Numbered from the stretch's first letter, positions 7,444 to 23,113 are shown. The stretch: DNA of 32,000 nucleotides from Thermosulfurimonas dismutans (GCF_001652585.1 NZ_LWLG01000017.1:1-32000); one strand, 5' to 3'. Numbers and translations: made by a program. Notes: a model not told the origin generated them from the sequence alone.

Positions 7444-7563
7444 TACAGTATCCCATAGCCTGTGCAGATTGCTTTGCTCTGAGACCGGCCAGGCTCAAGA
7501 AGGCCAAAATCTTTACCGGGGGGCCGAAATTTGAAAAAGTCGGAAAAGAAAGAGTAAAAATAG

Positions 7564-7974
7564 ATGGTTGCAGGTAAAAGCGGCTTGAGGAAGGTCCTCC
7601 TCATTTTCTCCCATCACCTCACTCCGGATCAGGAGCGGGAACTGAGGGAGGAATGGAAGGTAGGGGAATTCGTGGAACTTCCCCCGGAACTCCAAAAGCT
7701 CTGGGCCGGGGTGCCTCCGGAGGCCGAAACTCTTGAGCCATATCTTGAGCCCCTTTTTTGCTGGATGGCCGGGGTTGCTCGCCCCGGAGACCTCGCCTTC
7801 ATCCAGGGAGAGTTCGGGGCGGTCTATCTCACGGTGAGGCGGGCGCTTAAGCTAGGCCTTACGCCCATATACGCCACCTCGCGCCGGGAGGTCCGGGAAA
7901 AGTACCTTCTTGACGGCTCGGTGATCCAGGAGAGGGTTTTCAAACACGTGCGCTTCAGGATCTACGGGAGATGA
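7564..7974 (+). CDS. csx20: Small CRISPR-associated-like protein, possibly Csx20 family
   Basis: 136 aa, translationally coupled (ATGA overlap) to cas6. The N-terminal pattern VLLIFSHHLTPDQERELREEWKVGEFVELPPELQKLWAGVPPE resembles my recollection of Csx20 proteins. Family assignment is from memory only. Confidence 0.4.
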   Translation: MVAGKSGLRKVLLIFSHHLTPDQERELREEWKVGEFVELPPELQKLWAGVPPEAETLEPYLEPLFCWMAGVARPGDLAFIQGEFGAVYLTVRRALKLGLTPIYATSRREVREKYLLDGSVIQERVFKHVRFRIYGR

Positions 7975-8882
7975 TCTGGCTTCCTTTGAATACTTTTTAT
8001 ATCTATTTCGAGGCTGAAGAACCGGAAGCCTTACCGGCAAGACTATTTTCTACCTTTCGGGGGGCCTTCGGCCGGGCCCTGAAGAGGCTCTCCTGCGTGG
8101 CGAGGAAGTACAAGACCTGTCTCGAATGTCCTCTATGTCTGGATTGCGCCTACGGGTACCTCTTTGAGACCCCGAGACCTCCCGAGGCCGAGCGCCTGCG
8201 GAAATATCCCTATATAGGGCATCCCTTCGCTTTTGCTCCGCCCTTTCCCTATGAAAAGAAAAATCCCTTACAGGTAAGGACGACTCTGGTGGGGCGTGCC
8301 CTGCGGTTCTTTCCGCATGTAGTTTTGGCGTTTGAGGCCCTTGCCAAAACCGGACTCGGGAGAAGAAGGGTGCGCCTTCGGTTAATTTCCGTAAAAGAAA
8401 AGGACACAGGGCGGATGCTTTATGGTGAGGGAAAAATCTGGAATCCAGAGCCGTTTCCGCCACCGAGAGAAAATCCCTCTGTTGAAAACCTTGCTATAAA
8501 GTTCCTTACCCCTACCTCCCTTCGATTTTCTCGAAGAATCGTAAGGCCGGAAGACCTTGAGTTTCACATCCTCATCCGCAACCTCCTGCGTCGGGTCTCC
8601 ATGCTCTCGTATTTTCACGCCGGGACCCCGCTTGAGGTGGACTTCAGGGGGCTCATCGCCCGGGCAGAAAGAATAAAGACCGTAAGCCGAAAGCTTTCCT
8701 GGGTGCGATTCAAAAGGCGTTCGGCCCGCACCGGAGAGACTCATCCCCTGGAGGGATTCGTGGGCGAGGTGGAGTTTACGGGAGATTTTGGCCCTTTTGC
8801 TGAACTACTTCACCTGGGAACCTACGTGCAGGTGGGCCGCCACACCAGTTTCGGATTTGGATGCTATGGAATTAGACAATAG
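7971..8882 (+). CDS. cas6: Cas6-type pre-crRNA endoribonuclease (cysteine-cluster/DUF2276-like RAMP)
   Basis: 303 aa. Cys cluster CVARKYKTCLECPLCLDCAYGYLFE. C-terminal glycine-rich RAMP loop GTYVQVGRHTSFGFGCY. Located within the cas locus. Confidence 0.75.
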   Translation: MIWLPLNTFYIYFEAEEPEALPARLFSTFRGAFGRALKRLSCVARKYKTCLECPLCLDCAYGYLFETPRPPEAERLRKYPYIGHPFAFAPPFPYEKKNPLQVRTTLVGRALRFFPHVVLAFEALAKTGLGRRRVRLRLISVKEKDTGRMLYGEGKIWNPEPFPPPRENPSVENLAIKFLTPTSLRFSRRIVRPEDLEFHILIRNLLRRVSMLSYFHAGTPLEVDFRGLIARAERIKTVSRKLSWVRFKRRSARTGETHPLEGFVGEVEFTGDFGPFAELLHLGTYVQVGRHTSFGFGCYGIRQ

Positions 8883-9036: not shown

Positions 9037-9114
9037 TGGCGTCCCCGGCGGGATTTGAACCCACGTTGCCGGCGTGAAAGGCCGGTGTCCTGGACCTGGC
9101 TAGACGACGGGGAC
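9037..9114 (-). tRNA. tRNA-Glu (anticodon UUC), CCA encoded
   Basis: The reverse complement folds as GTCCCCG/TC/GTC..GAC/A/CCGGC-CTTTCAC-GCCGG/CAAC/GTGGG-TTCAAAT-CCCGC/CGGGGAC/G/CCA. It is almost colinear with E. coli tRNA-Glu. Confidence 0.9.
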
Positions 9115-9155
9115 GCCGCCTTTTCCTTAAAAGCTTTTATGTCTCCTTTCTCAAG

Positions 9156-9195
9156 TGGGCCGAGCAGGATTCGAACCTACGCTTCTTAGCTTAAA
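9156..9195 (-). pseudogene. 3' fragment of a tRNA-Lys-like gene (T-arm plus acceptor 3' strand); candidate att repeat
   Basis: Positions 9150-9195 match 19482-19527 (the 3' part of intact tRNA-Lys plus 6 nt of flank) at 40/46 positions by hand alignment. No D-arm or 5' acceptor strand follows. Confidence 0.65.
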
Positions 9196-9260
9196 GCCCT
9201 GCCCGACACGTCCGAATCTTAATCAATCTTAGTATTTCTGTCAATATCTGAGGGAGGAAG

Positions 9261-9617
9261 TTAGGCCGCGGCCGGAACCTCGGAGGAAGAATTCGCGCGG
9301 GAGGCCAGCTTGCGGGCGTAGTAGTCCCTCACGGCGCGAAGCACCTCCACGAATGTGGCATCCTTCAGGCCCAGCTCCGGCACCTCGTAGCGCCCGGGAA
9401 TGTTGAGCCGACGGGCCTCGGAAAGACAAATATTGAGGTCATAAACCGGATCTTTAATGAAAGCTAAACTGTAACCCACAATACGCCCCTCAGCATCCTC
9501 GCTAATTTGATGCCCAATCTCTCCGGTAAGGGGGCTGTCTTCCCCTTCCTCGTCAGGGGAAAGGAGATGGAACCCTACAAAATCTTCTTTGAAATGGAGC
9601 CTGACGCGGTTTTTCAT
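9261..9617 (-). CDS. Hypothetical protein (118 aa)
   Basis: ORF with an AAGGAG RBS. Its GC content resembles the flanking chromosome, not the cassette array. No family recognised. Confidence 0.5.
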   Translation of the reverse strand: MKNRVRLHFKEDFVGFHLLSPDEEGEDSPLTGEIGHQISEDAEGRIVGYSLAFIKDPVYDLNICLSEARRLNIPGRYEVPELGLKDATFVEVLRAVRDYYARKLASRANSSSEVPAAA

Positions 9618-9775
9618 TTACGATAAAGCTCCTTGTTTTGAAAGATAATTCCTTTCCGCAAGACGGTAAAGATACGCCGATCCTTACGCCCCGCCACTAC
9701 ACATGAAGTGCCCCCCATTTTTGACACAACCTTTGTGTTAGGCGAAAATACTAGGAAAGGAGGGGGTCACTACAC

Positions 9776-9798
9776 GTCCGCTGAAGCGAATTGTTAGG
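9776..9798 (-). repeat. Truncated terminal attC (R''/L'' arm only)
   Basis: GTCCGCTGAAGCGAATTGTTAGG matches the right-hand arm of the other attC copies. The partner arm (CTAACGCC..CTCAGCGG) is missing at 9700-9775. Confidence 0.6.
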
Positions 9799-10045
9799 AC
9801 TTTATAATCTTTTCATATTCCGAATGTTTACCAATCCAAAACCAAACAATTCCTTCTTCTATTTCTATCCCTATGGCTCTATATTTTCTACCAATCCGCA
9901 CCGACTAGTAATTAGCAACTTTCTTCAAATGCAATGATGGATGGTACGGATCTTTCTTAAGGAGTTCAAAATTCTTATCGGCCAATCTTTTGACTTCTTC
10001 GGGTAACCTCTCATATTCTTTCCAAAAAGAGGGGCTGGCATATGC
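9794..10045 (-). pseudogene. Decayed RelE/ParE-family toxin (paralogue of 10861..11118)
   Basis: Hand translation gives ..YASPSFWKEYERLPEEVKRLADKNFELLKKDPYHPSLHLKKVANY*SVRIGRKYRAIGIEIEEGIVWFWIGKHSEYEKIIKS. It is colinear with the intact toxin but has an in-frame TAG (nt 9905-9907) where the paralogue has Trp, and no start codon. Confidence 0.7.
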
Positions 10046-10223
10046 CGGCCCGGAAATCTTTAATGGCTTGTTCTGCTAATTTTTCTAGTTTTCCTAGTTT
10101 TACATCTCTTTCGAATTCTTTATCCCAAAGTTCCTGTTCAAAATCTTCTATCCACTCTAAGAGGATTTTTAGATCATTTTCTGGCAATTTTTTAATGTTT
10201 TCGATAATTTCGTGGACTTGCAT
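10011..10223 (-). CDS. Antitoxin-like protein (paralogue of 11118..11318), C-terminally extended into the dead toxin gene
   Basis: MQVHEIIENIKKLPENDLKILLEWIEDFEQELWDKEFERDVKLGKLEKLAEQAIKDFRAG parallels MISVEEIKSIIEKLPEREFIELRKWILEKDWENWDKKIEEDSRKGLLDFLIEEALEE. The internal ATG at 10223 is preferred over the track start 10271. Confidence 0.5.
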   Translation of the reverse strand: MQVHEIIENIKKLPENDLKILLEWIEDFEQELWDKEFERDVKLGKLEKLAEQAIKDFRAGICQPLFLERI

Positions 10224-10303
10224 GAAATCGGCCCCCCAGAAAGATTCGATTCTATTTAAAATTTTAACCAATCAAGATAAAATAACCAAATATTTTAATT
10301 TCT

Positions 10304-10364
10304 CCTAACGCCCAAACTCAGCGGCGGCGCCAGTCGGCGCCGTCCGCTGAAACGAGTTGTTAGA
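10304..10364 (-). repeat. attC site (cassette 8/9 junction)
   Basis: Plus strand reads CCTAACGCCCAAACTCAGCGGC-GGCGCCAGTCGGCGCC-GTCCGCTGAAACGAGTTGTTAGA. Arms are inverted, the centre is palindromic, and the hicA stop codon lies in the core. Confidence 0.8.
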
Positions 10365-10572
10365 TTAAATTTTCTTTTTCTTCACCAATAATTTCAAATA
10401 ATTGCTTTACAATCTTAGGATGTAATATCTTTCCGCTATGGAAGGGTAAAACAAAACGTTTGTTTTCTTTCATGTAAATCCTATGACTTCCTTTACTCCT
10501 AATCAATTTAAAACCTGCTTGTAATAATAACTTTTCGGCTTCAACAGCAGTTAATCTTGGTAGTTTAGGCAA
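10360..10572 (-). CDS. hicA: HicA-family mRNA interferase toxin
   Basis: 70 aa. PKLPRLTAVEAEKLLLQAGFKLIRSKGSHRIYMKENKRFVLPFHSGKILHPKIVKQL is a typical HicA/YcfA pattern. It overlaps hicB by 8 nt and appears to use a TTG start. Confidence 0.8.
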   Translation of the reverse strand: MPKLPRLTAVEAEKLLLQAGFKLIRSKGSHRIYMKENKRFVLPFHSGKILHPKIVKQLFEIIGEEKENLI

Positions 10573-10783
10573 CCCTTACCTCTAAAGAAGTAGTCAAAAT
10601 CTCCTTGTTTAATAAAATTCTTTTTTCTTCTTCATCCAAAGTTTCTAAATATAATTCTACAGCTTCTTTAATATTTTCTAGAACTTCATCTAAAGTATCC
10701 CCCTGTGTATGACAACCTTTTAATTCAGGACAATAAGCATAGTATCCAAATTCATCTTTTTCTATTATTACTGTAACTTTCAT
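10565..10783 (-). CDS. hicB: HicB-family antitoxin (UPF0150 fold)
   Basis: 72 aa. MKVTVIIEKDEFGYYAYCPELKGCHTQGDTLDEVLENIKEAVELYLE is the canonical HicB N-terminal domain. Confidence 0.8.
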   Translation of the reverse strand: MKVTVIIEKDEFGYYAYCPELKGCHTQGDTLDEVLENIKEAVELYLETLDEEEKRILLNKEILTTSLEVRVA

Positions 10784-10806
10784 ATTCTACCTCGAATTTA
10801 TTTTTT

Positions 10807-10865
10807 TCTAACGCCTCAACTCAGCGGCTCGCTGTTAAGCGGGTCCGCTGAAGCGGGTTGTTAGG
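10807..10865 (-). repeat. attC site (cassette 7/8 junction)
   Basis: TCTAACGCCTCAACTCAGCGGCTCGCTGTTAAGCGGGTCCGCTGAAGCGGGTTGTTAGG. The toxin stop codon lies in the core. Confidence 0.8.
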
Positions 10866-11118
10866 TTCTTCTTATCATTTTCTCATAATCATCGTGTGTT
10901 CCGATCCAAACCCAAATGTAATCATTTCCGTCTTGGATTGCTAAGGCTCTGTAATAATCAGTTATTCTTACAGACCAAAATTTTCCAACCTTTTTAAAGT
11001 GCAGAGATGGATGATGTGGATTCTTTTTAAGTAATTCGAATTGTTCCTTTGCTCTCTGTTTAACTTTTTCAGGCAAGGCTTCAAAATATTTCCAAAATCT
11101 AGAAGTTGCTTTATGCAC
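10861..11118 (-). CDS. RelE/ParE-superfamily toxin
   Basis: 85 aa. FWKYFEALPEKVKQRAKEQFELLKKNPHHPSLHFKKVGKFWSVRITDYYRALAIQDGNDYIWVWIGTHDDYEKM matches the RelE/ParE-like toxin pattern. It has a 1-nt overlap with the upstream small ORF. Confidence 0.7.
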   Translation of the reverse strand: MHKATSRFWKYFEALPEKVKQRAKEQFELLKKNPHHPSLHFKKVGKFWSVRITDYYRALAIQDGNDYIWVWIGTHDDYEKMIRRT

Positions 11119-11318
11119 TAGATATCTTTTAACTTCCCTTCTCGCTTTTCCTCAAGGGCTTCTTCAATTAGAAAATCCAAGAGACCTTTTCGAGAGTCTT
11201 CTTCAATTTTTTTATCCCAGTTTTCCCAATCTTTTTCTAGAATCCATTTTCGGAGCTCGATAAATTCCCGTTCCGGCAACTTTTCAATTATGGATTTGAT
11301 TTCTTCTACCGAGATCAT
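11118..11318 (-). CDS. Cognate antitoxin (small acidic helical protein)
   Basis: 66 aa, directly upstream of and coupled to the toxin. The W..WD..IE.D...G.LD pattern is typical of partners of this toxin type. Confidence 0.55.
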   Translation of the reverse strand: MISVEEIKSIIEKLPEREFIELRKWILEKDWENWDKKIEEDSRKGLLDFLIEEALEEKREGKLKDI

Positions 11319-11378
11319 TTAACTTCTCTCCAAACTAGATTTATTTAAATTTTTAAGCTATTTTCAGAAATATTTCAA

Positions 11379-11432
11379 CTTAACGCTAATTTCAGCGGCG
11401 GCTATAGCCGTCCGCTGGAGAGGCTTGTTAGA
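11379..11432 (-). repeat. attC site (cassette 6/7 junction)
   Basis: CTTAACGCTAATTTCAGCGGCGGCTATAGCCGTCCGCTGGAGAGGCTTGTTAGA. The core variant is GTTAAGT on the cassette strand. Confidence 0.75.
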
Positions 11433-11478
11433 AGTTTTTATTCTTAAATCTCATGTTTAAGTCCTTTTATATTTTTAC

Positions 11479-12975
11479 TTAATTATATTTTACCTTGGAT
11501 TCTACATAAATTATTGCATTTTCTAATGATTTATTAAAATCATCCACCAACTGTTTATTTTCCTCTTTCCATCTTTTAAAAACTTTTGCACATCCTTTCC
11601 CCCAATATTTCTTTTGTTCACTAAACCACTTTTTCATTTTTTCACGATTATCAGTATTAGGTTTATTTGCAAGAAAAATTTCTTTTGTATATTGACCAAT
11701 TGTTCCCCAAAATTTATCTTCTGGAGATAATGATTTTAAAAAATCATAAATAACATTTTCCGGTCTTTTTTCACCAGGCAAATATACAACATTTTTATAT
11801 CTGCTTTTTTTCTTATCCCCATCTAAAACAATTATACTATAAGGAAATGTTGGAGCTTTATGTTTAAGAAGATTTAAATAATTTTCAGCACCTAAATTAA
11901 GATTAGAAATTTTAACTCGTTTTCTTAGCTTTGGATCTATTATATTTCGCAGAAATATTCTAGCTTCTTCGTCCTCTGTATATAAATTTATTTTAGGATT
12001 TTCATGTGTTGGACATATTTCATAGCGTAAAGCAGATATAATTTGTTTTAACTTATTTAAATTTTGATATGGAATTACTTTTTCACCTCGTTTTTCAAGG
12101 AAAAGAAAACTTATATCGCTTGAATTTGAAAACATTTTATCCTCTAACATTGTCAAAATATCAGTTGAGTGGGTTGTAAAAATAATTTGAATTTTAAATT
12201 CTTTCGAAAATTTTAAAAACACCTCTAATAATTTTCTTTGTGCTCCTGGAAATAAAGTAGCATCAACTTCATCTATTAATAATATTCCCCCTTTATATTT
12301 ATCTTTTAATCTATCCTTAAGTTTTTTAAAAGACAAAATAGCTGTAAGTATTTGACCTAAATTATCTTCTCCAGCAGAATTGCTGAAAGCATCATGTGTT
12401 TTATGAGAGGGCGAATAAAATCTTTTGTGCTGTGTCTTAAAATCTTCAATATTGATTAATTCTTCTGATGCAAAGATTAAGTTGTAATAATGCTCATACC
12501 ACTCTTTATCAGAATTCTCTATTTTTAATGGTTTAAGATTTATATCTTTATCTTTTTCACGAGCAATAGGAAACAACCTTTCTAATCCTAAATATATTAC
12601 AGGCAAATTGATTTTACCTTCACCAGCTGCTTTTTTACCAACATGAATTCTAAATCTTTTTTCTGTCTCATTGTATCCTCTAAAATATGCTTTACGAACT
12701 GTATTATCATCGAAAATCACTTCATAGTCATATTTACTGTTTTTCTCATGCTTGAGAGAGAAACGGAATATTTCGCTAAATTCTGTAGCAAATCTTCGAC
12801 CTAACAGAGTTCGTTGAGTACCTTTAAAATCGAAAATGTGACCTATTAATCCTAAAAGTGCTGATTTCCCCGTACCATTTCTTCCAGCAATAACTGTGAT
12901 TTTTTTACCCACTTCAAATTCAATATTTTTAAGATTTCTAAAGTGATGGATTTTTACACGTTTAATTCTCATCAA
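11479..12975 (-). CDS. ABC/AAA_15-21-type ATPase fused to a Toprim/DUF4435-like C-terminal region (OLD-like); candidate defence protein
   Basis: 498 aa. Walker A GRNGTGKS, signature-like SAGEDNLGQIL, Walker B ILLIDEVDATLFP, H-loop TTHS. The C-terminal region has acidic motifs NLYTEDEEARIFL and IIVLDGDKK, followed by YLPGEKRPENVIYDFL. Confidence 0.65.
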   Translation of the reverse strand: MMRIKRVKIHHFRNLKNIEFEVGKKITVIAGRNGTGKSALLGLIGHIFDFKGTQRTLLGRRFATEFSEIFRFSLKHEKNSKYDYEVIFDDNTVRKAYFRGYNETEKRFRIHVGKKAAGEGKINLPVIYLGLERLFPIAREKDKDINLKPLKIENSDKEWYEHYYNLIFASEELINIEDFKTQHKRFYSPSHKTHDAFSNSAGEDNLGQILTAILSFKKLKDRLKDKYKGGILLIDEVDATLFPGAQRKLLEVFLKFSKEFKIQIIFTTHSTDILTMLEDKMFSNSSDISFLFLEKRGEKVIPYQNLNKLKQIISALRYEICPTHENPKINLYTEDEEARIFLRNIIDPKLRKRVKISNLNLGAENYLNLLKHKAPTFPYSIIVLDGDKKKSRYKNVVYLPGEKRPENVIYDFLKSLSPEDKFWGTIGQYTKEIFLANKPNTDNREKMKKWFSEQKKYWGKGCAKVFKRWKEENKQLVDDFNKSLENAIIYVESKVKYN

Positions 12976-13050
12976 ATCCCCCCTTCTAATTATATTTCTT
13001 TTAAAGTTTCCTTGATTTTCTAAACAATTTTTTCAATTTCTGTTTTTTCT

Positions 13051-13109
13051 TCTAACGCCCAAACTCAGCGGCCGGCAGTCTCGCCGGTCCGCTGAAGCGG
13101 GTTGTTAGG
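13051..13109 (-). repeat. attC site (cassette 5/6 junction)
   Basis: TCTAACGCCCAAACTCAGCGGCCGGCAGTCTCGCCGGTCCGCTGAAGCGGGTTGTTAGG. Confidence 0.8.
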
Positions 13110-13115
13110 AATATT

Positions 13116-13448
13116 TTATTTAAAATCTTTATTTTCTACTAACCAACTATCGTCTGGTTTATAACCATTTTTTATTGCAGCATTATAAAACTGAGTAAAT
13201 CCAGATATGGCTTGGTTTAATGCTAAATCTTCAGTATCGTTCCATGGTCGGCTAGTAATATATGGTCCCGCTTGCAAAGGAGTATGAATAAAATGACTTT
13301 GATAGAATTCATAATATCCAGTTCTGATATTTTTGTATATTTTTATGGTAATAGTTTTCGAAATACCATCTAAAGAAAATTTATACTCTGATACTAATAC
13401 TTTAGCTTCATTAATTATTTCATCTTTAAAAATTTCTTCAATTTCCAT
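13116..13448 (-). CDS. Hypothetical cassette protein (110 aa)
   Basis: Single ORF filling the cassette, with an AGGAGG RBS inside the R' flank. No family recognised. Confidence 0.55.
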   Translation of the reverse strand: MEIEEIFKDEIINEAKVLVSEYKFSLDGISKTITIKIYKNIRTGYYEFYQSHFIHTPLQAGPYITSRPWNDTEDLALNQAISGFTQFYNAAIKNGYKPDDSWLVENKDFK

Positions 13449-13457
13449 AAAAAACCT

Positions 13458-13517
13458 CCTAACGCCTAAACTCAGCGGCCGGCGATTATCGCCGGTCCGC
13501 TGAAGAGGTTTGTTATG
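13458..13517 (-). repeat. attC site (cassette 4/5 junction)
   Basis: CCTAACGCCTAAACTCAGCGGCCGGCGATTATCGCCGGTCCGCTGAAGAGGTTTGTTATG. The ORF stop codon lies in the core. Confidence 0.8.
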
Positions 13518-14388
13518 ATTGCCTTTGTGATTTTTTCATTTCATCTGGAAACAAAATCTCAACTGGCATATCAATATATCCCGAAGCATTCCTTTCCCAA
13601 CAAAGTTTTATCTGTTTAAATTGATATTCAATATATTTATCATCACTTGCAGCTTTAGGTCCAACATATTCATTATACCTGCCAAACGTTTCCCATCTAA
13701 CTTTAATATTTTCTAATTCCATTGCTCCAACTTTTTTAGAAATAAACACAAATCCATCCCAATCAATTCTTAATTGATTTAAAATTCTATCATCTGCTTC
13801 AGAAAAAAGTTCTGCACATTTTTCTTTAGTAAAATCATTGATATGAAATTCTGGATAATGATATTTAAATAAATCTCTATAATCTAAAAATATAGTAGCA
13901 TAAGCTTCATTTCTTAGCTCTATAGGATAATCATTTTTAAGAGATACTAAAAATACTTTCACTTTTCCTCTCAATTTTTTTAAAATAGGAACAAAATCTC
14001 GATCACTAGATAATAAAATTAAAATTTCTACTTCCTTTGCGTAATCCTCTATTTTACTAGAGATAGTTGTATCAACTCCTTTTTCTGAAGAACCAGGAAG
14101 ATCCACTATATCAACATACACTCCTATTTCAGCTTTAAGTCTTTTTAACAATAATTCTTGCTCTTTTTCAGAAAATCTTTGACTCCTAGGACCGAATTTT
14201 TTTTTAGAACACACAAATTCAACAATTTCTGCCTTTTCCTTTACATCAAAATCAGCAAGTTTTTTATTAATGATTTCTCTTAAACTTTCTAAACTTAATT
14301 GTCTAGCAATATGATTTGGTTTAATTCCTAATTCAATAACACGATTAATATAATTAGGTCCATCAACAATAATCGGTATGCCTTGCAT
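13513..14388 (-). CDS. NYN/LabA-like (PIN-like) domain protein with an unknown ~110-aa C-terminal domain
   Basis: 291 aa. The IIVDGPNYINR, EKGVDTTISSKI and LLSSDRDFVPILKKL triad matches the acidic-residue layout of the NYN (DUF88) domain. Confidence 0.65.
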   Translation of the reverse strand: MQGIPIIVDGPNYINRVIELGIKPNHIARQLSLESLREIINKKLADFDVKEKAEIVEFVCSKKKFGPRSQRFSEKEQELLLKRLKAEIGVYVDIVDLPGSSEKGVDTTISSKIEDYAKEVEILILLSSDRDFVPILKKLRGKVKVFLVSLKNDYPIELRNEAYATIFLDYRDLFKYHYPEFHINDFTKEKCAELFSEADDRILNQLRIDWDGFVFISKKVGAMELENIKVRWETFGRYNEYVGPKAASDDKYIEYQFKQIKLCWERNASGYIDMPVEILFPDEMKKSQRQS

Positions 14389-14405
14389 ATTTTTTACCTT
14401 TACCT

Positions 14406-14464
14406 CCTAACGGCCAAATTCACTCGCCCGCCGTATGGCGGGTCGGGTGAAAAGGTTTGTTAGA
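14406..14464 (-). repeat. attC site, sequence-divergent but structure-conserving variant (cassette 3/4 junction)
   Basis: CCTAACGGCCAAATTCACTCGCCCGCCGTATGGCGGGTCGGGTGAAAAGGTTTGTTAGA. Both arms are changed relative to the consensus, yet they remain complementary. Confidence 0.75.
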
Positions 14465-15197
14465 TATTTTTTCTAATATAAAGTATCTCACTATCACTAA
14501 TTCTAGTTTTTATGTCCTCTTCTGAATAATCCAAAAGTTCTACGCATCTGTTGTAATATATTTCATACCATTCACCAAAATATTTATGAAAATCTGTTAC
14601 CATTTTATCAAAGGTCAGCTGTTCAAAATTCGGGCAGTCTTCATTACCTATAACTACTTTTGCTCCACCCAACATAATTCCTTGTTGAGTAAAACCGATA
14701 AGGTGCCCACAAAAATATTTAAGGGATGTAACCTGCATTGAACAGTTATCTTCTTTTTTCTTCGGAGAAGCAAAAGCCGTATGAGCGAAAATTTTATGTC
14801 TATATCTTCTATATTTTTTTATCGCATCTTCTCTCTGTTTTAAGATCTTTTTGTTTACTTCATCGCCAATCTTGTCATGCATATTCTTATATTCTTTTTT
14901 TAAAATATCTGTTAAATTTAAAGCAAAAACAATAAAGGAACCGATACGCCATATTTCTCTTGCTATGAAGGACTCTAATTTAGATTCTTTGACCCCAATA
15001 GCAGGAAATTTTTCTATTAATTTTTTGTTCATCTTAATATCACTTTTATAAGAATTATAAATTTCCAATAATATTCTTAAAATACTATCAATTGAAGAAA
15101 GTATATCTATTGAGGGAATAGTCATTATATAATTTTGAGAATTTCTTCTTAAAGATAGTACTAAATATGGCAAAGAACGAAATGAGTATTCTAACAT
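14460..15197 (-). CDS. Hypothetical cassette protein with a HEPN-like R-x5-H motif
   Basis: 245 aa. KKYRRYRHKIFAHTAF resembles the R[NH]xxxAH HEPN catalytic motif. The protein is otherwise unrecognised. Confidence 0.45.
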   Translation of the reverse strand: MLEYSFRSLPYLVLSLRRNSQNYIMTIPSIDILSSIDSILRILLEIYNSYKSDIKMNKKLIEKFPAIGVKESKLESFIAREIWRIGSFIVFALNLTDILKKEYKNMHDKIGDEVNKKILKQREDAIKKYRRYRHKIFAHTAFASPKKKEDNCSMQVTSLKYFCGHLIGFTQQGIMLGGAKVVIGNEDCPNFEQLTFDKMVTDFHKYFGEWYEIYYNRCVELLDYSEEDIKTRISDSEILYIRKNI

Positions 15198-15222
15198 TAT
15201 CCCTTCCTTTTTAGATTTATCA

Positions 15223-15281
15223 TCTAACGCCTAAACTCAGCAGCCGGCGTATACGCCGGTCCGCTGGAGCGAATTGTTAGA
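15223..15281 (-). repeat. attC site (cassette 2/3 junction)
   Basis: TCTAACGCCTAAACTCAGCAGCCGGCGTATACGCCGGTCCGCTGGAGCGAATTGTTAGA. Confidence 0.8.
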
Positions 15282-15455
15282 TTATTTTCATTTTCCTGTT
15301 CTTTTTCAGAAAAAACGTCCATTATCTTCTTGTTCTCTTCCTTTTAAACCTAAAATCCTGCGAAGCAGTATTCAATTTCTTTTTTATCCTGATTCGCCCG
15401 ACTCTTGAAGTGTATTTCTTACCGATTTATGCAATCAATTCTACGGACCGATCTC

Positions 15456-16103
15456 TCAATTTCTCCTTTTTGCAGAGCTGATTATTGAATTAATATAATC
15501 GTTGATCTCTTTAATTCTTGACCCAAGTATAATATTATAGCCCTTTAGTCTTTTATCCCATACTCTTTTTGCTAAGCGAACAAAATGTAAAAAATCATTT
15601 TTCATATCTTCTTGAAACTCTTCATCAATTATGACTCCAGAAACAGGACCAGTACCTGTGATCCGTTCTGTAAATGATTCTTTTTTATATGCAGTTTTCA
15701 TATCTAAATCGTATCTTACTCCTATACCCAGCTTATCTATCTTCTGGATCCTTTCAAAAGTTTGTTTGGTACATATTCTATATTTGCCATTCGCTCTTTC
15801 TTTGCATTCTGCAATAATTTTACTTAAATTGTGACTGCATTTTCTTGCTACTATATATGCCTCTTTAGCGGTTTCGTCTTTTTTAGATAATCCTATCAGT
15901 ATTGCTTTTAATATGCACTCGAGTGCCATTCTGAGCATAATGAACTGTTTAGTCATAATAGACATGTTGTGAACAGGGAAACTTTGACTGTGATGATATA
16001 GAGCAATCCAATCAGCTGCATCTCTGAAGAAATGGCCAAATAAAACAGCTTTTACATGTGACTCTAAGGAAAACCGTTTGCCAATCTTTTTTAATGTAGT
16101 CAT
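15456..16103 (-). CDS. HEPN-domain-like protein
   Basis: 215 aa. The helix pattern ALECILKAILIGL .. CSHNLSKIIAE .. LGIGVRYD resembles the classical HEPN domain (..E.aLKA.L.. / ..tHdL..L.. / ..RY..). A canonical Rx4-6H motif is not evident. Confidence 0.5.
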   Translation of the reverse strand: MTTLKKIGKRFSLESHVKAVLFGHFFRDAADWIALYHHSQSFPVHNMSIMTKQFIMLRMALECILKAILIGLSKKDETAKEAYIVARKCSHNLSKIIAECKERANGKYRICTKQTFERIQKIDKLGIGVRYDLDMKTAYKKESFTERITGTGPVSGVIIDEEFQEDMKNDFLHFVRLAKRVWDKRLKGYNIILGSRIKEINDYINSIISSAKRRN

Positions 16104-16115
16104 TTATTTATCGTG

Positions 16116-16172
16116 TCTAACGCCAAACTCAGCGGCGCCATGTAATGGCGTCCGCTGAAGAGATTTGTTAGG
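16116..16172 (-). repeat. attC site (cassette 1/2 junction)
   Basis: TCTAACGCCAAACTCAGCGGCGCCATGTAATGGCGTCCGCTGAAGAGATTTGTTAGG. The ORF stop codon lies in the core. Confidence 0.8.
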
Positions 16173-17010
16173 TCTTTTCATTAATAATCCTATTTGCAAA
16201 ATAATTATCAAAAAAGTTTAAAAAGTCTCGAAGTCCCAAAATAATAGAATTAAGTAGTTTCTCTACCTCAAATCTGTCTTGAATTATTGTAACTAAGTAA
16301 TGGTCTCCTCGTTCATAAAAAGAAATATCAATAGAACCAACATGAGTAACATAATCTCTTATATCGCGAACAATAAAAAACCATTCCATGTGATTTTTTA
16401 TGTATTGTTTCATAGTATCATCTGAAATTTCTCCCGATCTATGTTTATCTTTGCAAATATATTTTATATAATCAGAAAAACTACAGAATTGACGAGAACT
16501 AGGACCATACAAGAAATGGAGCATAGTAGCAATTGAATCCATAATACTTCTTACATTAAATAAAAGACCAGCGATCTCTGATTTTAATGCATAAACTTGG
16601 TCACCTATATTAAATGAAGGCTGTCCTGTTCTTGGAAGTATTTTCCGAGTTTTTTGGTAATAAACTTGGATGTCTTTAATTATTTTTTGTATCCTTTCAA
16701 TATTCAAAGTTAAAGAATAAAGCTTATCAGCTATGTATTTAAAGTTAAATACATAATATTGTCCTGCTAAAAAATATTGTCGAATATATCCATTTTTAGT
16801 TTCTATATAATATCCTATATGATGAAATCTTTCCCAATATCTAGTCTTTAAAATAGCTTTTCTAAGTTGTGGAAAAGGATCTTTTAAAGCAGGTATTGTA
16901 TAACTAACTAGTTTACCCCGGGAGGGAGATAAGCTTACTCTGTAAGTATTCCTTAATCTTTCTTGTATTTTCTCTTGCGCTTGTTTAGTTTTTATAATTT
17001 CAAAACGCAT
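16168..17010 (-). CDS. Hypothetical first-cassette protein with a possible HEPN R-x4-H motif
   Basis: 280 aa. The C-terminal half contains WFFIVRDIRDYVTHVGS (RDYVTH = Rx4H). No family recognised with certainty. Confidence 0.45.
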   Translation of the reverse strand: MRFEIIKTKQAQEKIQERLRNTYRVSLSPSRGKLVSYTIPALKDPFPQLRKAILKTRYWERFHHIGYYIETKNGYIRQYFLAGQYYVFNFKYIADKLYSLTLNIERIQKIIKDIQVYYQKTRKILPRTGQPSFNIGDQVYALKSEIAGLLFNVRSIMDSIATMLHFLYGPSSRQFCSFSDYIKYICKDKHRSGEISDDTMKQYIKNHMEWFFIVRDIRDYVTHVGSIDISFYERGDHYLVTIIQDRFEVEKLLNSIILGLRDFLNFFDNYFANRIINEKT

Positions 17011-17075
17011 TTTTATTTATCTAACATTACTTTTATACTTTCTTAGATTTAAAGCCTATTGCCAATATTTTTGGA

Positions 17076-17105
17076 ATGATAGCTTTTTACAATAAAAAAT
17101 GTCAA
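17076..17105 (-). promoter_or_regulatory. Candidate cassette promoter Pc (TTGACA-18 nt-TATCAT)
   Basis: On the minus strand, the -35 TTGACA is at 17105-17100 and the -10 TATCAT at 17081-17076. It points into the cassette array from within attI. Confidence 0.4.
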
Positions 17106-17222
17106 ACATTAAGATTAAATCTTATTACGAATCTCTTGAGATAATAGAGGATAAAAATGTTTATTTTTATTTTTATGTCTTAAAATTTCTTAAAATCTAA
17201 CTTTCTGGATAATACACAAAAT

Positions 17223-17251
17223 TTGCCTAATTTTGCAAAGTAAAATAAGAT
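17223..17251 (+). promoter_or_regulatory. Candidate intI promoter (TTGCCT-17 nt-TAAGAT)
   Basis: Hexamers at 17223-17228 and 17246-17251, about 40 nt upstream of the intI ATG. Confidence 0.3.
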
Positions 17252-17290
17252 GGCTTGCAGATAATATCTTTGCTGGCAAAAAGGATCAAA

Positions 17291-18358
17291 ATGGAATCGC
17301 AAGAAAAGTTGATGGAAAAATTTGGGGCCTTTCTCAAGAAGGTGGAAAAGCGAGAAAGGGTGGTCCCCTTCATGGTGCGGTGGGTGGTGCAGGCCCTGCA
17401 GGAATATGAACTGCCCCCCGGACAAAAGTTAGCCCCCGCTCAGAAAAAACAATTTCTCTTTAAATTATCCCAAAAATACGAGCCTTGGCAAGTAGAACAG
17501 GCTGATCGGGCCTTAAAGCTATATGAGTATTTCCTGAACACCTTATCCCAAAAATCTCCGACAGAGAGGACAGAGGCCGAATGGGCGGAGGCCTTGGAGA
17601 AGGCCAGAGAGGTCCTCAGGCGCAAACGGTACTCCTACCGCACCGAAAAATCTTACCTTGACTGGATAAGATGCCTGGCCGAATATCTGGACTACAAATC
17701 ACCGGAAGAAGTTTCCGGCGAGGATTTTCAGGATTTTCTCACCCATCTTGCCGTGGAAAGAAACGTAGCCCCTTCCACCCAGAATCAGGCTTTAAATGCC
17801 CTGGTGTTCTTTTATCGCCATGTGCTCGAAAAAGAAATTGATCCCTATATTGAGGCCGTAAAGGCCCGGGAGAGAAGAAGGCTTCCGGTGGTGCTAAGCC
17901 GGGAAGAGGTGGAGGCCGTGCTCTCGGTCTCGGAACTTGAGGAAACCTATTATCTAATCTGTGCCCTCATGTATGGAGGGGGCTTGAGAGTAAGTGAGAC
18001 GGTAAGACTCCGGGTAAAAGATCTGGATTTTGAACGAGGCTTGATCACGGTATTTTCCGGCAAGGGAGACAAAGACCGGGTAACCGTAGATCCGCGGACT
18101 GAGACCGTGCGTCGGCATCACATCCATCCCAGTGCGGTGCAACGGGCCTTCAAGAAGGCGCTACGGAAGGCCAGAGTGGAAAAACCCGCTACGGTGCATT
18201 CCCTGCGGCACAGCTTCGCTACCCACCTCCTTGAGGACGGCTACGATATTCGTACCATTCAGGAACTTCTGGGGCACAAGAGTCTGAGCACCACTATGAT
18301 TTACACTCATATCGTGGGACGGCGGGTCACCGGGGTGGTGAGTCCGCTTGACCGCTAA
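17291..18358 (+). CDS. intI: Integron integrase (IntI-type tyrosine recombinase), apparently lacking the IntI-specific insertion
   Basis: The sequence is colinear with IntI1 as I recall it. Matching blocks are RYSYRTEKSYLDWIRCLAEYL, STQNQALNALVFFYRHVL, RRLPVVLSREEV, GGLRVSETVRLRVKDLDFERGLITVFSGKGDKDR, DPRTETVRRHHIHPSAVQRAFKKA, HSLRHSFATHLLEDGYDIRTIQELLGH and TTMIYTH. The ATG at 17291 has an AAGGA RBS, whereas the track start 17255 is a TTG. Confidence 0.85.
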   Translation: MESQEKLMEKFGAFLKKVEKRERVVPFMVRWVVQALQEYELPPGQKLAPAQKKQFLFKLSQKYEPWQVEQADRALKLYEYFLNTLSQKSPTERTEAEWAEALEKAREVLRRKRYSYRTEKSYLDWIRCLAEYLDYKSPEEVSGEDFQDFLTHLAVERNVAPSTQNQALNALVFFYRHVLEKEIDPYIEAVKARERRRLPVVLSREEVEAVLSVSELEETYYLICALMYGGGLRVSETVRLRVKDLDFERGLITVFSGKGDKDRVTVDPRTETVRRHHIHPSAVQRAFKKALRKARVEKPATVHSLRHSFATHLLEDGYDIRTIQELLGHKSLSTTMIYTHIVGRRVTGVVSPLDR

Positions 18359-18374
18359 TTTAAAGGAGAAAAGT

Positions 18375-18701
18375 ATGCGTATACTAGCCACGATTCTGAT
18401 GGTGATCGGGTATCTTTTAATAGGGGCCCATTTTCTGCGGGCTGGGCATTCGTTGGTGGCCCTGGGGCTTGCCTTTGCGCCGGCTCTTCTCTTTCTCAAA
18501 CACCGGATGGTGCGCCTGATCCTTTCCGCAGGCCTGGGGCTGGCCCTTATTGAATGGGGCCGGACTTTCGTTTTCCTGAAACGGATCTATGAGGCTCACG
18601 GCCTTCCTTTCAGCAAGTCTGGTTTCATCCTGGGAGGAGTAATGGCCGTTACCTTTCTGGCCGTAGCCCTCAACCTGCGGGAGGATCTGCGGAACAAATG
18701 A
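18375..18701 (+). CDS. Small integral membrane protein (3-4 predicted TM helices)
   Basis: MRILATILMVIGYLLIGAHFL.. is hydrophobic throughout. AAAGGAG RBS at 18362-18368. ATGA coupling to the downstream ABC remnant. Confidence 0.55.
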   Translation: MRILATILMVIGYLLIGAHFLRAGHSLVALGLAFAPALLFLKHRMVRLILSAGLGLALIEWGRTFVFLKRIYEAHGLPFSKSGFILGGVMAVTFLAVALNLREDLRNK

Positions 18702-18968
18702 TCCGGGTCCGCCATCTGCACTATCGTTACCCGGAAGGAACTCGGGAGGCCCTTTCCGGGATCTCGCTTACGGTAAATCCGGGAGAGGTGCTGCTTCTTT
18801 CCGTCCTCTGCTGACTTATTCCTTCACAGGCCGGAGGTGAGTTTTCCGGAGAGGTGAAGGTTCTGGGGCGAAAGGCTCCCTTTTCTCCCGCGGAGGTCTT
18901 TCCCGAGGTGGCCTTCGGGCTTGAAAACCTGGGGTATCCGGAAAGGGAACTCGAAAATAAACTAAGCA
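18698..18968 (+). pseudogene. Decayed ABC transporter ATP-binding gene (EcfA/CbiO-like) remnant
   Basis: MIRVRHLHYRYPEGTREALSGISLTVNPGEVLLLSVLC* then, in the same frame, LIPSQAGGEFSGEVKVLGRK..EVAFGLENLGYPERELENKL. The Walker A segment is missing, there is an in-frame TGA at 18812-18814, and homology ends abruptly near 18968. Confidence 0.65.
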
Positions 18969-19295
18969 TCAACCCAAGCTATCGCCAACAAAAGTGGCGG
19001 ATAGTCGTCTACTCCCAACTTTAAGCTCAAATGCAAACGCAGGGACATGAACTATAAGGGAGTAAAGAGCATCCTTTAGTAAACGCGAATCGGCCTCTAC
19101 AGAAAGAAAAACGCCTAGAGGTAAGGAAAGAGACGAATTGGCAGCAGAAGAAACAAAACCTGTAAGACGGGTCTTGAAACCATCTGCTATTTCCACTAAT
19201 TCAAACTCGGGCATACGAACCTTTCCTACTACCTGCTTAGTATCCTTGTCTATTATATCAATAACCATATAAAAGGCCTCAAAGGATTCAAGCAC
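18969..19295 (-). CDS. Hypothetical protein (108 aa)
   Basis: ORF only; no recognisable motifs. It starts exactly where the ABC remnant ends. Confidence 0.3.
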   Translation of the reverse strand: MLESFEAFYMVIDIIDKDTKQVVGKVRMPEFELVEIADGFKTRLTGFVSSAANSSLSLPLGVFLSVEADSRLLKDALYSLIVHVPAFAFELKVGSRRLSATFVGDSLG

Positions 19296-19487
19296 TGGCT
19301 CTACCGAAGGCTTCCTTTTTTCCAGGTGGTTTATCCAGAAAGCTTGGCAAAGGAAATAGAAGAGGATCTTTCTTTTTTCCTAAGTAAGCTAAAGAAAGAT
19401 GATCTCCAATGATTTAATTGCCTATATCAAACAAATCCTTTCGGACACCTAAATTAAGGCGGAGGACTGAAACCCTTGATCCTCAAG

Positions 19488-19560
19488 TGGGCCGGGCAGG
19501 ATTCGAACCTGCGACTCCTGGCTTAAAAGGCCAGTACTCTGCCAGCTGAGTTACCGGCCC
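19488..19560 (-). tRNA. tRNA-Lys (anticodon UUU), CCA not encoded
   Basis: The reverse complement reads GGGCCGG/TA/ACTC-AGCTGGCA-GAGT/A/CTGGC-CTTTTAA-GCCAG/GAGTC/GCAGG-TTCGAAT-CCTGC/CCGGCCC/A. This is a perfect 73-nt cloverleaf. Confidence 0.9.
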
Positions 19561-19572
19561 GGTTATGGGCTT

Positions 19573-19601
19573 AAATTACCCTTGAACTCCAGGGCTGTCA
19601 A
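19573..19601 (-). promoter_or_regulatory. Candidate tRNA-Lys promoter (TTGACA-17 nt-TAATTT)
   Basis: On the minus strand, the -35 is at 19601-19596 and the -10 at 19578-19573, 12 nt before the tRNA 5' end. The IS target duplication begins at the first base of the -35. Confidence 0.45.
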
Positions 19602-19611
19602 GAATTATTAA

Positions 19612-20561
19612 GAGGGTGTTCGAAAAAACTAGATATTGACGTTGGGGGAGCCTAGAATTAACTCCCCCAACATGAGAAGAAGCAAACTGCGTCTCAAGAC
19701 CATCTTCAAAATAACCCGAGCCATAATAAATGAAAAGCCCCTGGCCTTTCGAGGTCGCCCAAAAACTTATTCCGATGCCTTCATTATCTCTATCTTCCTC
19801 TACCAAACCCTAAAAAATCTATCCTACCGAGAAGCACTAGAAGAGGCCTTCGATATATTGGGACGAAGACCCGCCCTTTCTACCTACCACTACCGAGTCT
19901 CAAAATTCCCTAAACAATCCCTGAAAATCCTTCTCCAAGAATTGGCCCGAAAACTTCTAGCAAAAGAACATCACCTCTTTTCCTTTATCTCTGATGGCAC
20001 CGGCTTTAGTTATCATGACCTCTACCCTTTAAAATTCTTAAGAGGCTCAGAAATCAGAAAAGTAAAAGCCCATATAAGAGTGGTCCCCATAATCGGAGTA
20101 ACTTCATCCGGAAAAAGAATCGTCATTACCGCTGAAACCGGAGGTCCCTATGCCAGCGAGGTAAAACTTCTCCTGGAAGCTCTGGCAGAAATTGATCCAG
20201 TCACTTTTAAAGCCGAATGTTTTATAGCAGATAAATGCTATGACAGTCTCAAGGTCATGGAAAAACTTGTAGAGCTTGGATTAAAACCGGCCATAAAAGT
20301 AAAAGAAACCTTCAGGCAGAAGGTAAAACATCCTCTGCGGAAAGATTCCAGAATTTTCTGGGAGAAATGGGGCCGAAATAGATATCTGATTGAAAGTTTG
20401 TTTGGTACGGTAAAACTGAAAATAGGCTCGCATTTTAGGGTAAGAAAGGAAGAAATAGCCCAGAAGAGAGGACTGGCCGCTTTTGTGCTCTATAATATGT
20501 ACCTCCTGGCTACCCTCCTCTATATCTCGTTGCTCCTTAAAAACTATTTTCGAACACTCTC
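19612..20561 (+). mobile_element. Insertion sequence (950 bp, IS4/IS5-superfamily DDE transposase)
   Basis: The terminal inverted repeats are GAGGGTGTTCGAAAA (19612-19626) and the complement of TTTTCGAACACTCTC (20547-20561), matching at 14/15 positions. They are flanked by a perfect 11-bp direct repeat AGAATTATTAA (19601-19611 and 20562-20572). Confidence 0.75.
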
Positions 20562-20592
20562 AGAATTATTAAAAGCCTTTTCATCCCAATAA
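19672..20592 (+). CDS. DDE transposase (IS4/IS5 superfamily)
   Basis: Acidic triad context FISDGTGFS / CFIADKCYDS / RYLIESLFGTVKLK (R-x3-E-x6-K). The ATG at 19672 is preferred over the TTG at 19636. The ORF reads through the right IR, and its stop (20590-20592) lies in flanking DNA. Confidence 0.7.
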   Translation: MRRSKLRLKTIFKITRAIINEKPLAFRGRPKTYSDAFIISIFLYQTLKNLSYREALEEAFDILGRRPALSTYHYRVSKFPKQSLKILLQELARKLLAKEHHLFSFISDGTGFSYHDLYPLKFLRGSEIRKVKAHIRVVPIIGVTSSGKRIVITAETGGPYASEVKLLLEALAEIDPVTFKAECFIADKCYDSLKVMEKLVELGLKPAIKVKETFRQKVKHPLRKDSRIFWEKWGRNRYLIESLFGTVKLKIGSHFRVRKEEIAQKRGLAAFVLYNMYLLATLLYISLLLKNYFRTLSELLKAFSSQ

Positions 20593-20614
20593 TAACCAAG
20601 GCAATTTAGTTTCC

Positions 20615-20643
20615 TTGACAAGCAACTCCAGCAATGTTAATAA
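20615..20643 (+). promoter_or_regulatory. Candidate promoter of the TonB-receptor operon (TTGACA-17 nt-TAATAA)
   Basis: Hexamers at 20615-20620 and 20638-20643, about 45 nt upstream of the ATG at 20688. Confidence 0.45.
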
Positions 20644-20670
20644 TTCGTGCTACGAATATAAAATTCGTAA
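20643..20670 (+). promoter_or_regulatory. Putative operator: palindrome ATTCG-TGCTA-CGAAT plus a third AATTCGTAA half-site
   Basis: Perfect 5+5 palindrome at 20643-20657 that begins at the last base of the -10 hexamer. A repeat of the half-site lies at 20662-20670. Confidence 0.3.
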
Positions 20671-20687
20671 TACTAAGGAGGTCGGAG

Positions 20688-22616: not shown

Positions 22617-22642
22617 ATCCTAATCGGTAAAGGAGGAAAAAC

Positions 22643-23113
22643 ATGAAAAAATTATTAATAGTACCCTTTAGTTTTATGTGTCTTTTAGTTTTCAGTAGTT
22701 TAGTCAAAGCTCACGATCTTTGGCTCCAAGCCCAAAATTATTATCTCGATTCTATGGAAAACATTGAAATAAAAGTTGTGTTTGGTCATAACTTTCCTTA
22801 TGAAGATATTTTAATACCAAAAAAAGATATAAGTGAATTTTCATATGTAACTCCTGAAGGAGTTAAAAAATCGGTTACAAATATTTGGGAAAGCATAAAG
22901 GGTAACAGGAAAAGAGAATACAAAAAAGGAAGTTTGATAGGAGAGATTGATTTATCTAAATGCACAAAATGCAAAGAGGGGACTTATATTATTGCTGCTT
23001 CTAGAGTTAGAAAAGGAGACAAGTTTCATGTACCTTCAGGAAAATATGGTAAAGCTATAATTATAGTAGGCCAAAAAGGTACGCAAAAAATAACTAAAGG
23101 GGGTGTCTTATGA
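22643..23113 (+). CDS. Short DUF4198 (CbiK-like periplasmic Co/Ni-binding) paralogue
   Basis: Signal peptide followed by AHDLWLQ..VVFGHNFP, which is the DUF4198 N-terminal signature. At only 156 aa it lacks the C-terminal half. The gene is visibly AT-rich. Confidence 0.55.
   Translation: MKKLLIVPFSFMCLLVFSSLVKAHDLWLQAQNYYLDSMENIEIKVVFGHNFPYEDILIPKKDISEFSYVTPEGVKKSVTNIWESIKGNRKREYKKGSLIGEIDLSKCTKCKEGTYIIAASRVRKGDKFHVPSGKYGKAIIIVGQKGTQKITKGGVL

Follow-up and report, generated by a model that had tools for sequence, protein, structure and literature searches.

Can an integron be carried by a mobile island that targets a tRNA gene? This question is raised by a 32,000-nucleotide (nt) stretch of the Thermosulfurimonas dismutans genome (GCF_001652585.1, NZ_LWLG01000017.1:1-32000; hereafter the window), in which a cassette array and its integrase gene, intI, lie between an intact tRNA-Lys gene and an orphan copy of its 3' half. 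An earlier note on this DNA had read the arrangement as one 10.3-kb island carrying the integron as cargo. We find that the locus is most likely a remodelled hotspot that keeps the decayed scar of an old integration. Judged by its boundaries, the repeat is best read as an att-type scar, and the integron integrase did not make it. The integron itself is of the chromosomal type native to this lineage, and is on balance unlikely to have been cargo of the integrated element.

The tRNA-Lys repeat and its boundary

The two ends of the interval are defined by the following features, with positions counted from the first letter of the window.

9037..9114, minus strand: tRNA-Glu(UUC), CCA encoded, 35 nt downstream of the orphan fragment (ARAGORN, Rfam)
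9150..9195, minus strand: orphan tRNA-Lys 3'-half fragment, the left repeat copy, 40/46 identical to the right copy
19482..19527, minus strand: right repeat copy, from the tRNA-Lys anticodon loop (TTTAA) to the 3' end plus 5 nt (TTGAG)
19487..19560, minus strand: intact tRNA-Lys(UUU), without encoded CCA (ARAGORN; Rfam RF00005, 73.3 bits)

According to a repeat finder, positions 9150-9195 and 19482-19527 form a direct repeat of two copies on the minus strand, with 40/46 identical positions and thus 13% divergence between the copies. In tRNA orientation the block reads TTTAAGC...GGCCCACTTGAG, and the distance from repeat start to repeat start is 10,332 nt (10.3 kb). The second-best match of the 46-mer on either strand of the window reaches 25/46, and the chance expectation for a 40/46 match in a sequence of this length is ~1e-13. 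The repeat, including two identical blocks quoted from it, is present as the earlier note had claimed, and both tRNA genes that it named, tRNA-Lys(UUU) and tRNA-Glu(UUC), are found by ARAGORN and Rfam. Its measurements need some adjustment. The right copy, described as T-arm and acceptor end plus 6 nt, does belong to the 3' part of tRNA-Lys, but it starts in the anticodon loop, spans the variable loop, T-arm and acceptor strand, and includes 5 nt of flank. The distance of 41 nt between the left copy and tRNA-Glu holds when counted from the pseudo-3' end, whereas from the repeat end it is 35 nt.

Comparison with the tRNA-Lys genes of four relatives (a Thermosulfurimonas sp., T. dismutans, a Thermodesulfobacteriaceae metagenome-assembled genome (MAG) and a Thermodesulfatator sp.) reveals which copy has changed. 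The intact gene of the window is identical to those of L005, L006 and L007 at 73/73 positions and to that of L004 at 72/73. Over the repeat block, all four related genes equal the intact copy, and the orphan copy is therefore the derived, decayed one. It differs from the intact gene and the four relatives at six positions, five of them changed from G:C to A:T, a bias as expected of an unselected remnant. Given the 13% divergence, the integration event would therefore be old. In reference genomes, the tRNA-Lys sequence is identical across three genera.

Upstream of the orphan copy, similarity to the tRNA-Lys 5' half scores 5, against a mean of 5.7 for shuffled sequences. Homology therefore ends sharply in the anticodon loop. 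A decayed whole tRNA-Lys pseudogene was considered as a candidate and rejected, as no 5'-half similarity rises above that of the shuffles. At the other end, the repeat copy extends merely 5-8 nt past the tRNA. The anticodon loop is the commonest crossover site of tyrosine-integrase islands, and this class (class A) accounts for 2083 of the 3919 islands mapped by Islander, 3' fragments being found in 3760 (PMC4383910). A full tRNA accompanied by a sharply bounded 3' fragment is the signature of tyrosine-integrase integration (PMC4383910). The window shows a tRNA gene with a cognate, co-oriented 3' fragment 10.3 kb downstream; the fragment boundary lies at this known crossover sublocation, and the length of 10,332 nt falls within the Islander range of 2-200 kb. 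Because the homology stops sharply at the commonest tyrosine-integrase crossover site, an att-type scar is the best reading that the sequence offers, and the repeat is very probably an integrase scar of some kind. Of the attL/attR footprint proposed in the earlier note, the cognate fragment, its orientation, its downstream position and its start in the anticodon loop are all borne out; the polarity of the trailer sequences, described below, is reversed.

The only PF00589 protein of the interval is the integron integrase (TIGR02249). Searches with Pfam, NCBIfam and PHROGs returned no island-type integrase or remnant in the interval (18359-19486 at E up to 10), and no int/xis or mobilisation genes of island type in 9196-19481. 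Islander excludes integron integrases as island integrases and finds that such enzymes do not mobilise canonical islands (PMC4383910). That the IntI-like gene is the only recombinase inside the interval is thus correct, but its role as a possible agent of the integration is not supported, given this exclusion and the loss of its integron-specific domain.

The integron between the copies

The interval enclosed by the repeat contains the following features.

9261..9617, minus strand: gene for a 118-amino-acid (aa) protein of a small family without Pfam domain, not a cassette; 56% GC, 15 homologues
9623..9700, minus strand: truncated C-terminus remnant of a 164-aa partner gene (tblastn against the partner in L012)
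9770..9805, minus strand: half attC (R''/L'' arm only) at the distal array end; deletion scar at ~9770
9806..17011, minus strand: cassette array, nine cassettes and eight complete attC sites; 27-35% GC
11479-12975, minus strand: cassette gene for a 498-aa defence-type ATPase-Toprim protein (PADLOC ATPase-Toprim_I-B over its full length; PtuA/GajA/AriA-like)
17012..17290, plus strand: putative attI / promoter region; 23% GC, homology to the relatives' platforms begins at 17012
17291..18358, plus strand: intI, 355 aa; in-frame 56-codon deletion with its joint at ~18084-18098
18375..18701, plus strand: small membrane-protein gene of an ordinary, widespread family (187 family representatives)
18969..19295, minus strand: orphan open reading frame (ORF) of 108 aa, adjoining the intact tRNA-Lys, where an island integrase is expected

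The intI product belongs to the integron integrase subfamily (TIGR02249, 310.7 bits against a cutoff of 265), with the match split into two pieces. Its best PDB match is VchIntIA (2A3V, E 1.6e-59), of which residues 168-227 have no counterpart in the window protein. Related IntIs measure 407-414 aa, compared with 355 aa here, and DNA alignments place the loss at 56 codons relative to L008 and 60 relative to L002, with a CCGT(G) microhomology at the joint. The removed segment, FPRK...ALERKYPEAGKEWSWFWLFPSKDLS (including ALERKYP...WSWFWLFPS), is the integron-specific domain (I2 helix region), and the additional domain that distinguishes IntI proteins is accordingly missing. The segment between the β-hairpin lysine and HxxR is, we take it, shorter than that of XerD, and the deletion exceeds the I2 helix. 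All catalytic residues are kept (R, K, HxxR, H, Y). The gene thus represents a natural 'I2-less' IntI, with clean in-frame loss of exactly the integron-specific domain. The lineage is also characterised by an N-terminal extension of ~100 aa before the SAM-like domain (17291-17600 in the window; also in L001, L002, L003, L008 and L009). The additional IntI domain reads the extrahelical bases of attC (PMC4792948, PMC7790495). With this domain lost, the integron is predicted to be disabled, and its array is truncated.

The complete attC sites form imperfect hairpins with R''/R' boxes, as in a genuine integron array. The cassette cargo is defence- or addiction-like and comprises HicA/HicB, a ParE-like toxin, an NYN-domain protein and the 498-aa ATPase-Toprim protein. 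Besides 11479-12975, this cargo occupies 10360-11118 and 13513-14388. An 'ABC remnant' that the earlier note placed in the interval was not found, the sole ABC-like match being the 498-aa ATPase cassette. Segment GC fractions are 0.27-0.35 for cassettes, 0.23 for attI, 0.52 for intI and 0.56 for the 118-aa gene. Cassettes and attI, at 23-35% GC, stand against a host value of ~55%, and the attC stems are GC-rich. The same contrast is seen in the integron of Thermosulfurimonas sp. F29 (L001, 1-10000), with 30-38% GC against a backbone of 52%.

The distal end of the array is damaged. Folding fails for the half attC (-2.4 kcal/mol, z +1.4), while complete attCs reach z values of -4.5 and -5.2. The adjoining remnant matches the 164-aa partner protein of L012 at 12/26 identical and 19/26 similar residues (E 4e-6), in the same relative position. 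A truncated attC is here fused to a truncated 164-aa gene, and a deletion scar therefore lies at ~9770. The bracket thus does not hold the 'entire integron' that had been claimed, as the array is cut within its last attC at ~9770 and intI is internally deleted.

The two-gene module at this end has a different provenance. In L012 (283-1123), the 164-aa and 118-aa genes stand beside a CRISPR array, and in L010 (287-643), the 118-aa gene stands alone beside prophage-like genes. Over its final 152 nt, the 118-aa gene is 91% identical to that of L010 at the nucleotide level, while its 5' half has diverged, a pattern that suggests a recombining or mobile 3' segment. No relative of the 118-aa family was found in IMG/VR.

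The integron has relatives at other sites. Five related platforms carry IntIs that are 67-90% identical to that of the window, and homology to them is confined to 17012-18358 (attI and intI), ending exactly at the intI stop codon. At the other end, homology starts at 17012 directly after the first cassette (with 87% identity to L008 from this point), which fits a putative attI junction there. The platform sits at the CCA-adding enzyme gene (cca) locus in Thermosulfurimonas sp. F29 (L001) and in L009, at an RHH/PIN pair in L002, at DUF498/RF1/L31 in L003, and on a short contig in L008, where the downstream flank is also different. L001 and L009 share the cca/ABC-transporter locus. None of the five related platforms lies near tRNA-Lys (0/5; five sites, four known neighbourhoods). 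Homology ends at the intI stop and at attI, and no island backbone is shared. The attI-intI platform evidently changes its location between genomes. As the F29 array has attC sites homologous to those of the window and AT-rich cassettes as well, the integron is of a lineage-resident, chromosomal type.

Between intI and tRNA-Lys stands the small membrane-protein gene, whose closest homologue (68%) lies beside reverse gyrase in a related MAG among other neighbours, and synteny via this gene was rejected for this reason. The 108-aa orphan ORF has no homologue among 5.8 billion proteins and no Pfam or PHROG match at E up to 10. The gap also holds GC-rich DNA without a convincing gene.

Flanking sequences and the origin of the probable scar

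Three further features flank the repeat copies.

9216..9244, minus strand: promoter-like site TTGACA-17-TAAGAT, by 10/12 consensus match alone; reads into the fragment and tRNA-Glu
19443..19486, minus strand: trailer behind the 3' end of the intact tRNA-Lys, with in-register conservation in three relatives
19561..19612, minus strand: tRNA-Lys upstream (promoter) region TTGACAG...TAATTT, conserved; homology to relatives stops at ~19612

A simple in-situ insertion should place element DNA behind the regenerated tRNA gene and leave the native flank behind the displaced fragment. The window displays the reverse. Trailers were compared by an anchored shuffle test, as gapped global identity gave inflated values. 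Against L004, L006 and L007 in turn, the trailer of the intact gene yields anchored z values of 6.0, 5.3 and 3.5 (30 nt) and of 7.3, 4.0 and 3.7 (45 nt), scores that at most 0.25% of shuffles match; its local score of 20 against L004 is reached by 0/300 shuffles. The flank of the fragment agrees with the family trailer over the first ~8 nt only; when compared with L004 and L007 across 45 nt, it scores no differently from shuffles. The family-typical trailer therefore adjoins the intact gene and not the fragment, opposite to the expectation for a simple attL/attR event. On one reading, the attP of the element would have imitated 44 nt or more of family-type trailer, the host's own trailer being atypical. 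On the other, the fragment did not arise as the displaced half of this tRNA-Lys copy; its source could be a second target before tRNA-Glu, or a stranded attP, brought here by the deletion at ~9770. No other copy of the trailer motif TAGGTGTCC, which could be an arm-type site, lies close to either repeat.

The promoter-like site lies ~20 nt upstream of the fragment, so that the fragment would belong to the leader transcript of tRNA-Glu; the 35-nt spacer between the two leaves no room for a separate promoter.

An ancestral tRNA-Lys-tRNA-Glu tandem, as the earlier note had envisaged, was sought in several ways and not recovered. No tRNA-Glu follows tRNA-Lys in either of the two relatives with enough downstream DNA (L006 and L007), both of which have other genes there, in L007 ACT-domain and PaaK-like ones. 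The pattern of the tandem, or of the junction between fragment and tRNA-Glu, gave 0 matches in 185,579 species genomes and the JGI metagenomes, in which the contig of the window is itself absent or masked, and the exact tRNA-Glu 43-mer gave 0 matches in JGI metagenome contigs. Each of four relatives has one locus matching the tRNA-Lys pattern. The ChlI-like orthologue of F29 (L015, 90% cluster) was rejected as an empty-site test, being non-syntenic and without a tRNA within 10 kb. A 410-aa ORF beside tRNA-Lys in L006 was likewise discarded as a cryptic integrase (no family match at E up to 10, implausible composition).

Searches for a related element were equally negative. IMG/VR holds no attP-like copy of the fragment variant, and its matches to the T-arm/acceptor pattern are only tRNA-Met genes or tRNA-Met 3' halves. 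Two of its contigs, L018 (3145-3169) and L019 (385-409), carry orphan tRNA-Met 3' halves with T-arm and acceptor as in tRNA-Lys, which are probably the attP sites of unrelated phages. Neither end of the bracket matches any of 50,697 phage records. Exact look-ups of the window's Cas6, TonB receptor and IntI for sister contigs returned no match. Among related MAG contigs, two end shortly past the tRNA-Lys 3' end, at 7 nt (L005, 4219-4299) and 285 nt (L004, 1-360). The L005 break nearly coincides with the end of the repeat block, a position to be expected if the strains of its population were to differ there.

Taken together, we lean, by a narrow measure of confidence, towards a remodelled patchwork, in which the scar is old and the interval is not a coherent mobile island. 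An element with an anticodon-loop attP, carrying its own tRNA 3' half, would have recombined with tRNA-Lys(UUU) through a tyrosine integrase of island or phage type, leaving a regenerated tRNA-Lys gene and a displaced 3' half. The element would then have lost its integrase and most of its body, the orphan copy would have decayed by six substitutions, and at least one deletion would have reshaped the locus, cutting the array inside an attC. The present interval would accordingly consist of a few hundred bases of a foreign two-gene module, the resident integron, the membrane-protein gene and orphan DNA. Of this account, the repeat with its sharp edge, the damage to intI and the array, the deletion scar, the varying platform location and the trailer polarity are direct observations; the lost integrase, the sequence of events and the non-cargo status of the integron are inferred. 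Several observations weigh against this patchwork. A cognate, co-oriented fragment ~10 kb downstream is the exact prediction of a single in-situ island, under which everything between the copies, integron included, would therefore be cargo or a later insertion. The candidate promoter upstream of the fragment fits a tRNA-Glu that formerly stood behind tRNA-Lys and favours the tandem idea. The contig ends past tRNA-Lys hint at a live hotspot, although they prove nothing. Finally, no empty site, second occupied site or integrase-bearing related element was recovered, and for this reason we infer the integrase origin of the scar from its shape alone.

The model of the earlier note, in which one 10.3-kb island with the integron as cargo split a tRNA-Lys-tRNA-Glu operon and later lost its own integrase, draws on the same geometry: the fragment is cognate, co-oriented and downstream, starts at the anticodon loop and delimits an island of usual size. 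Moreover, the same platform occupies several loci in relatives, so that something moves it, and the candidate promoter at the distal end could keep an orphaned tRNA-Glu expressed, the 35-nt spacer being too short to do so. We nevertheless consider this model unlikely. The tandem is missing from L006, L007, the species genomes and the metagenomes, there is no integrase remnant, and the interval is heterogeneous with a deletion scar inside it. The trailer follows the intact gene, so that the attP would have to mimic at least 44 nt of it, and the homology of related integrons ends exactly at the intI stop and attI, with no common backbone. A variant nested within the patchwork, which we regard as possible though tentative, holds that the att scar is not cognate to this tRNA-Lys copy. 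The fragment would then stem from a second tRNA-Lys before tRNA-Glu, or from the stranded attP of an element, and the ~9770 deletion would have joined it to the array, with loss of the integrase, the regenerated tRNA and the distal cassettes. On this view the trailer polarity needs no added assumption, and the missing integrase and the promoter before the fragment are explained as well; the variant also agrees with a scar that joins a truncated attC to a truncated element-type gene, and with a chromosomal-type membrane gene and a lineage-typical integron directly downstream of an undisturbed tRNA-Lys unit. However, it needs a second tRNA-Lys(UUU) or a non-att insertion, whereas the four relatives each showed one matching locus, and it makes the proximity and shared orientation of fragment and intact gene partly a coincidence.

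Two further origins carry less weight. The fragment could have arisen without any integrase, from a duplicated tRNA-Lys whose 5' half was removed by an unrelated deletion ending in the anticodon loop. The locus is visibly rearranged, with an insertion sequence (IS), inserted gene clusters and a deletion scar, and the fragment has decayed. Yet a random breakpoint would fall in the 7-nt anticodon loop only about once in ten cases, at what is also the commonest integrase crossover site; the copy ends 5-8 nt past the tRNA, and no relative has a second copy, which renders this origin quite improbable. Still harder to credit, to the point of being nearly negligible, is that IntI itself, or an I2-less derivative acting as a classical double-strand recombinase, made the tRNA-Lys junctions. 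It is the sole tyrosine recombinase of the interval, keeps its catalytic residues and is encoded 1.1 kb from the tRNA, the usual place of island integrases, and IntI1 keeps an ancestral double-strand activity on attI x attI (PMC4792948). Against this, no GTT/AAC crossover triplet and no attI/attC-like site occurs at either boundary of the repeat, full-length relatives are never found beside tRNA-Lys, the deletion of ~56 residues exceeds the I2 helix, and integron integrases do not mobilise canonical islands according to Islander.

The wider window is in keeping with a variable neighbourhood, and both sides of tRNA-Lys are variable. Its 5' side (19613-24330) contains a transposase gene of IS4/IS5 type (19636-20592), and a TonB-receptor/DUF4198 cluster of lower GC precedes the ChlI-ChlD-CobN genes. 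L005 and L006 have gap-pgk-luxR on this side. L004 (654-1664) has beside its tRNA-Lys a 43-codon ChlI remnant fused to an MBL-fold ORF and nothing more of ChlI, and 5'-side synteny with L004 was rejected on this account. Beyond tRNA-Glu, 682-8882 hold a type III CRISPR-Cas module (Csm2, Cas10, Csx20, Cas6), with no CRISPR array in the window. The module includes a 1252-aa TPR/SEC-C-motif protein (3685-7443), whose SEC-C region matches the PADLOC candidates PDC-S12 and E2.

Comparison with known systems

In the library of papers searched, none links Thermosulfurimonas with integrons. An integron on a tRNA-targeting island had been called an uncommon mobilisation route, but class 1 integrons are well documented on site-specific islands such as SGI1 (PMC2297512, PMC9035990). 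Such an arrangement would be new only for an integron of chromosomal type. From a coherent island one could learn by what route chromosomal integrons change place and spread, a process of which little is understood beyond the transposon-borne clinical classes. It is conceivable, though rather doubtful, that the sedentary platform moved between sites as cargo of a tRNA-Lys-targeting element of which this locus is the decayed vehicle; if true, this would explain the attI-intI unit at five or more sites in Thermosulfurimonas relatives. The supported picture is more ordinary, with a tRNA hotspot in which an old scar, an IS, inserted clusters and a degenerating integron have come together. The value of the locus lies in a Thermodesulfobacteriota integron lineage with strongly AT-biased cassettes, and in a natural IntI variant cleanly lacking the integron-specific domain.

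Like the class A islands of Islander, the window has an intact tRNA and a cognate, co-oriented 3' fragment, whose start lies in the anticodon loop and which extends a few nt beyond the tRNA. Whereas those islands contain an island integrase, the window has an integron integrase only, the family trailer stands beside the intact gene, and the repeat has diverged by 13%. SGI1-like islands similarly hold an integron between direct repeats that result from integration at the 3' end of a conserved gene. Their int/xis and mobilisation genes are their own, and the integrons on them are mobile class 1 types with transposon backbones. The window, by contrast, has neither an island integrase nor a mobilisation gene and contains a lineage-resident chromosomal integron.

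The integron itself is most reminiscent of sedentary chromosomal integrons, for which inactivated intI genes are known from IntegronFinder-type surveys. As in these, intI is divergent from the array, the attCs are homogeneous, the cargo is of toxin-antitoxin and defence type, and intI is damaged while the array persists. The window differs in its Thermodesulfobacteriota host, in cassettes ~25 GC points below that host, in the N-terminal ~100 aa of its IntI, in the clean in-frame loss of a domain, and in an array cut inside an attC.

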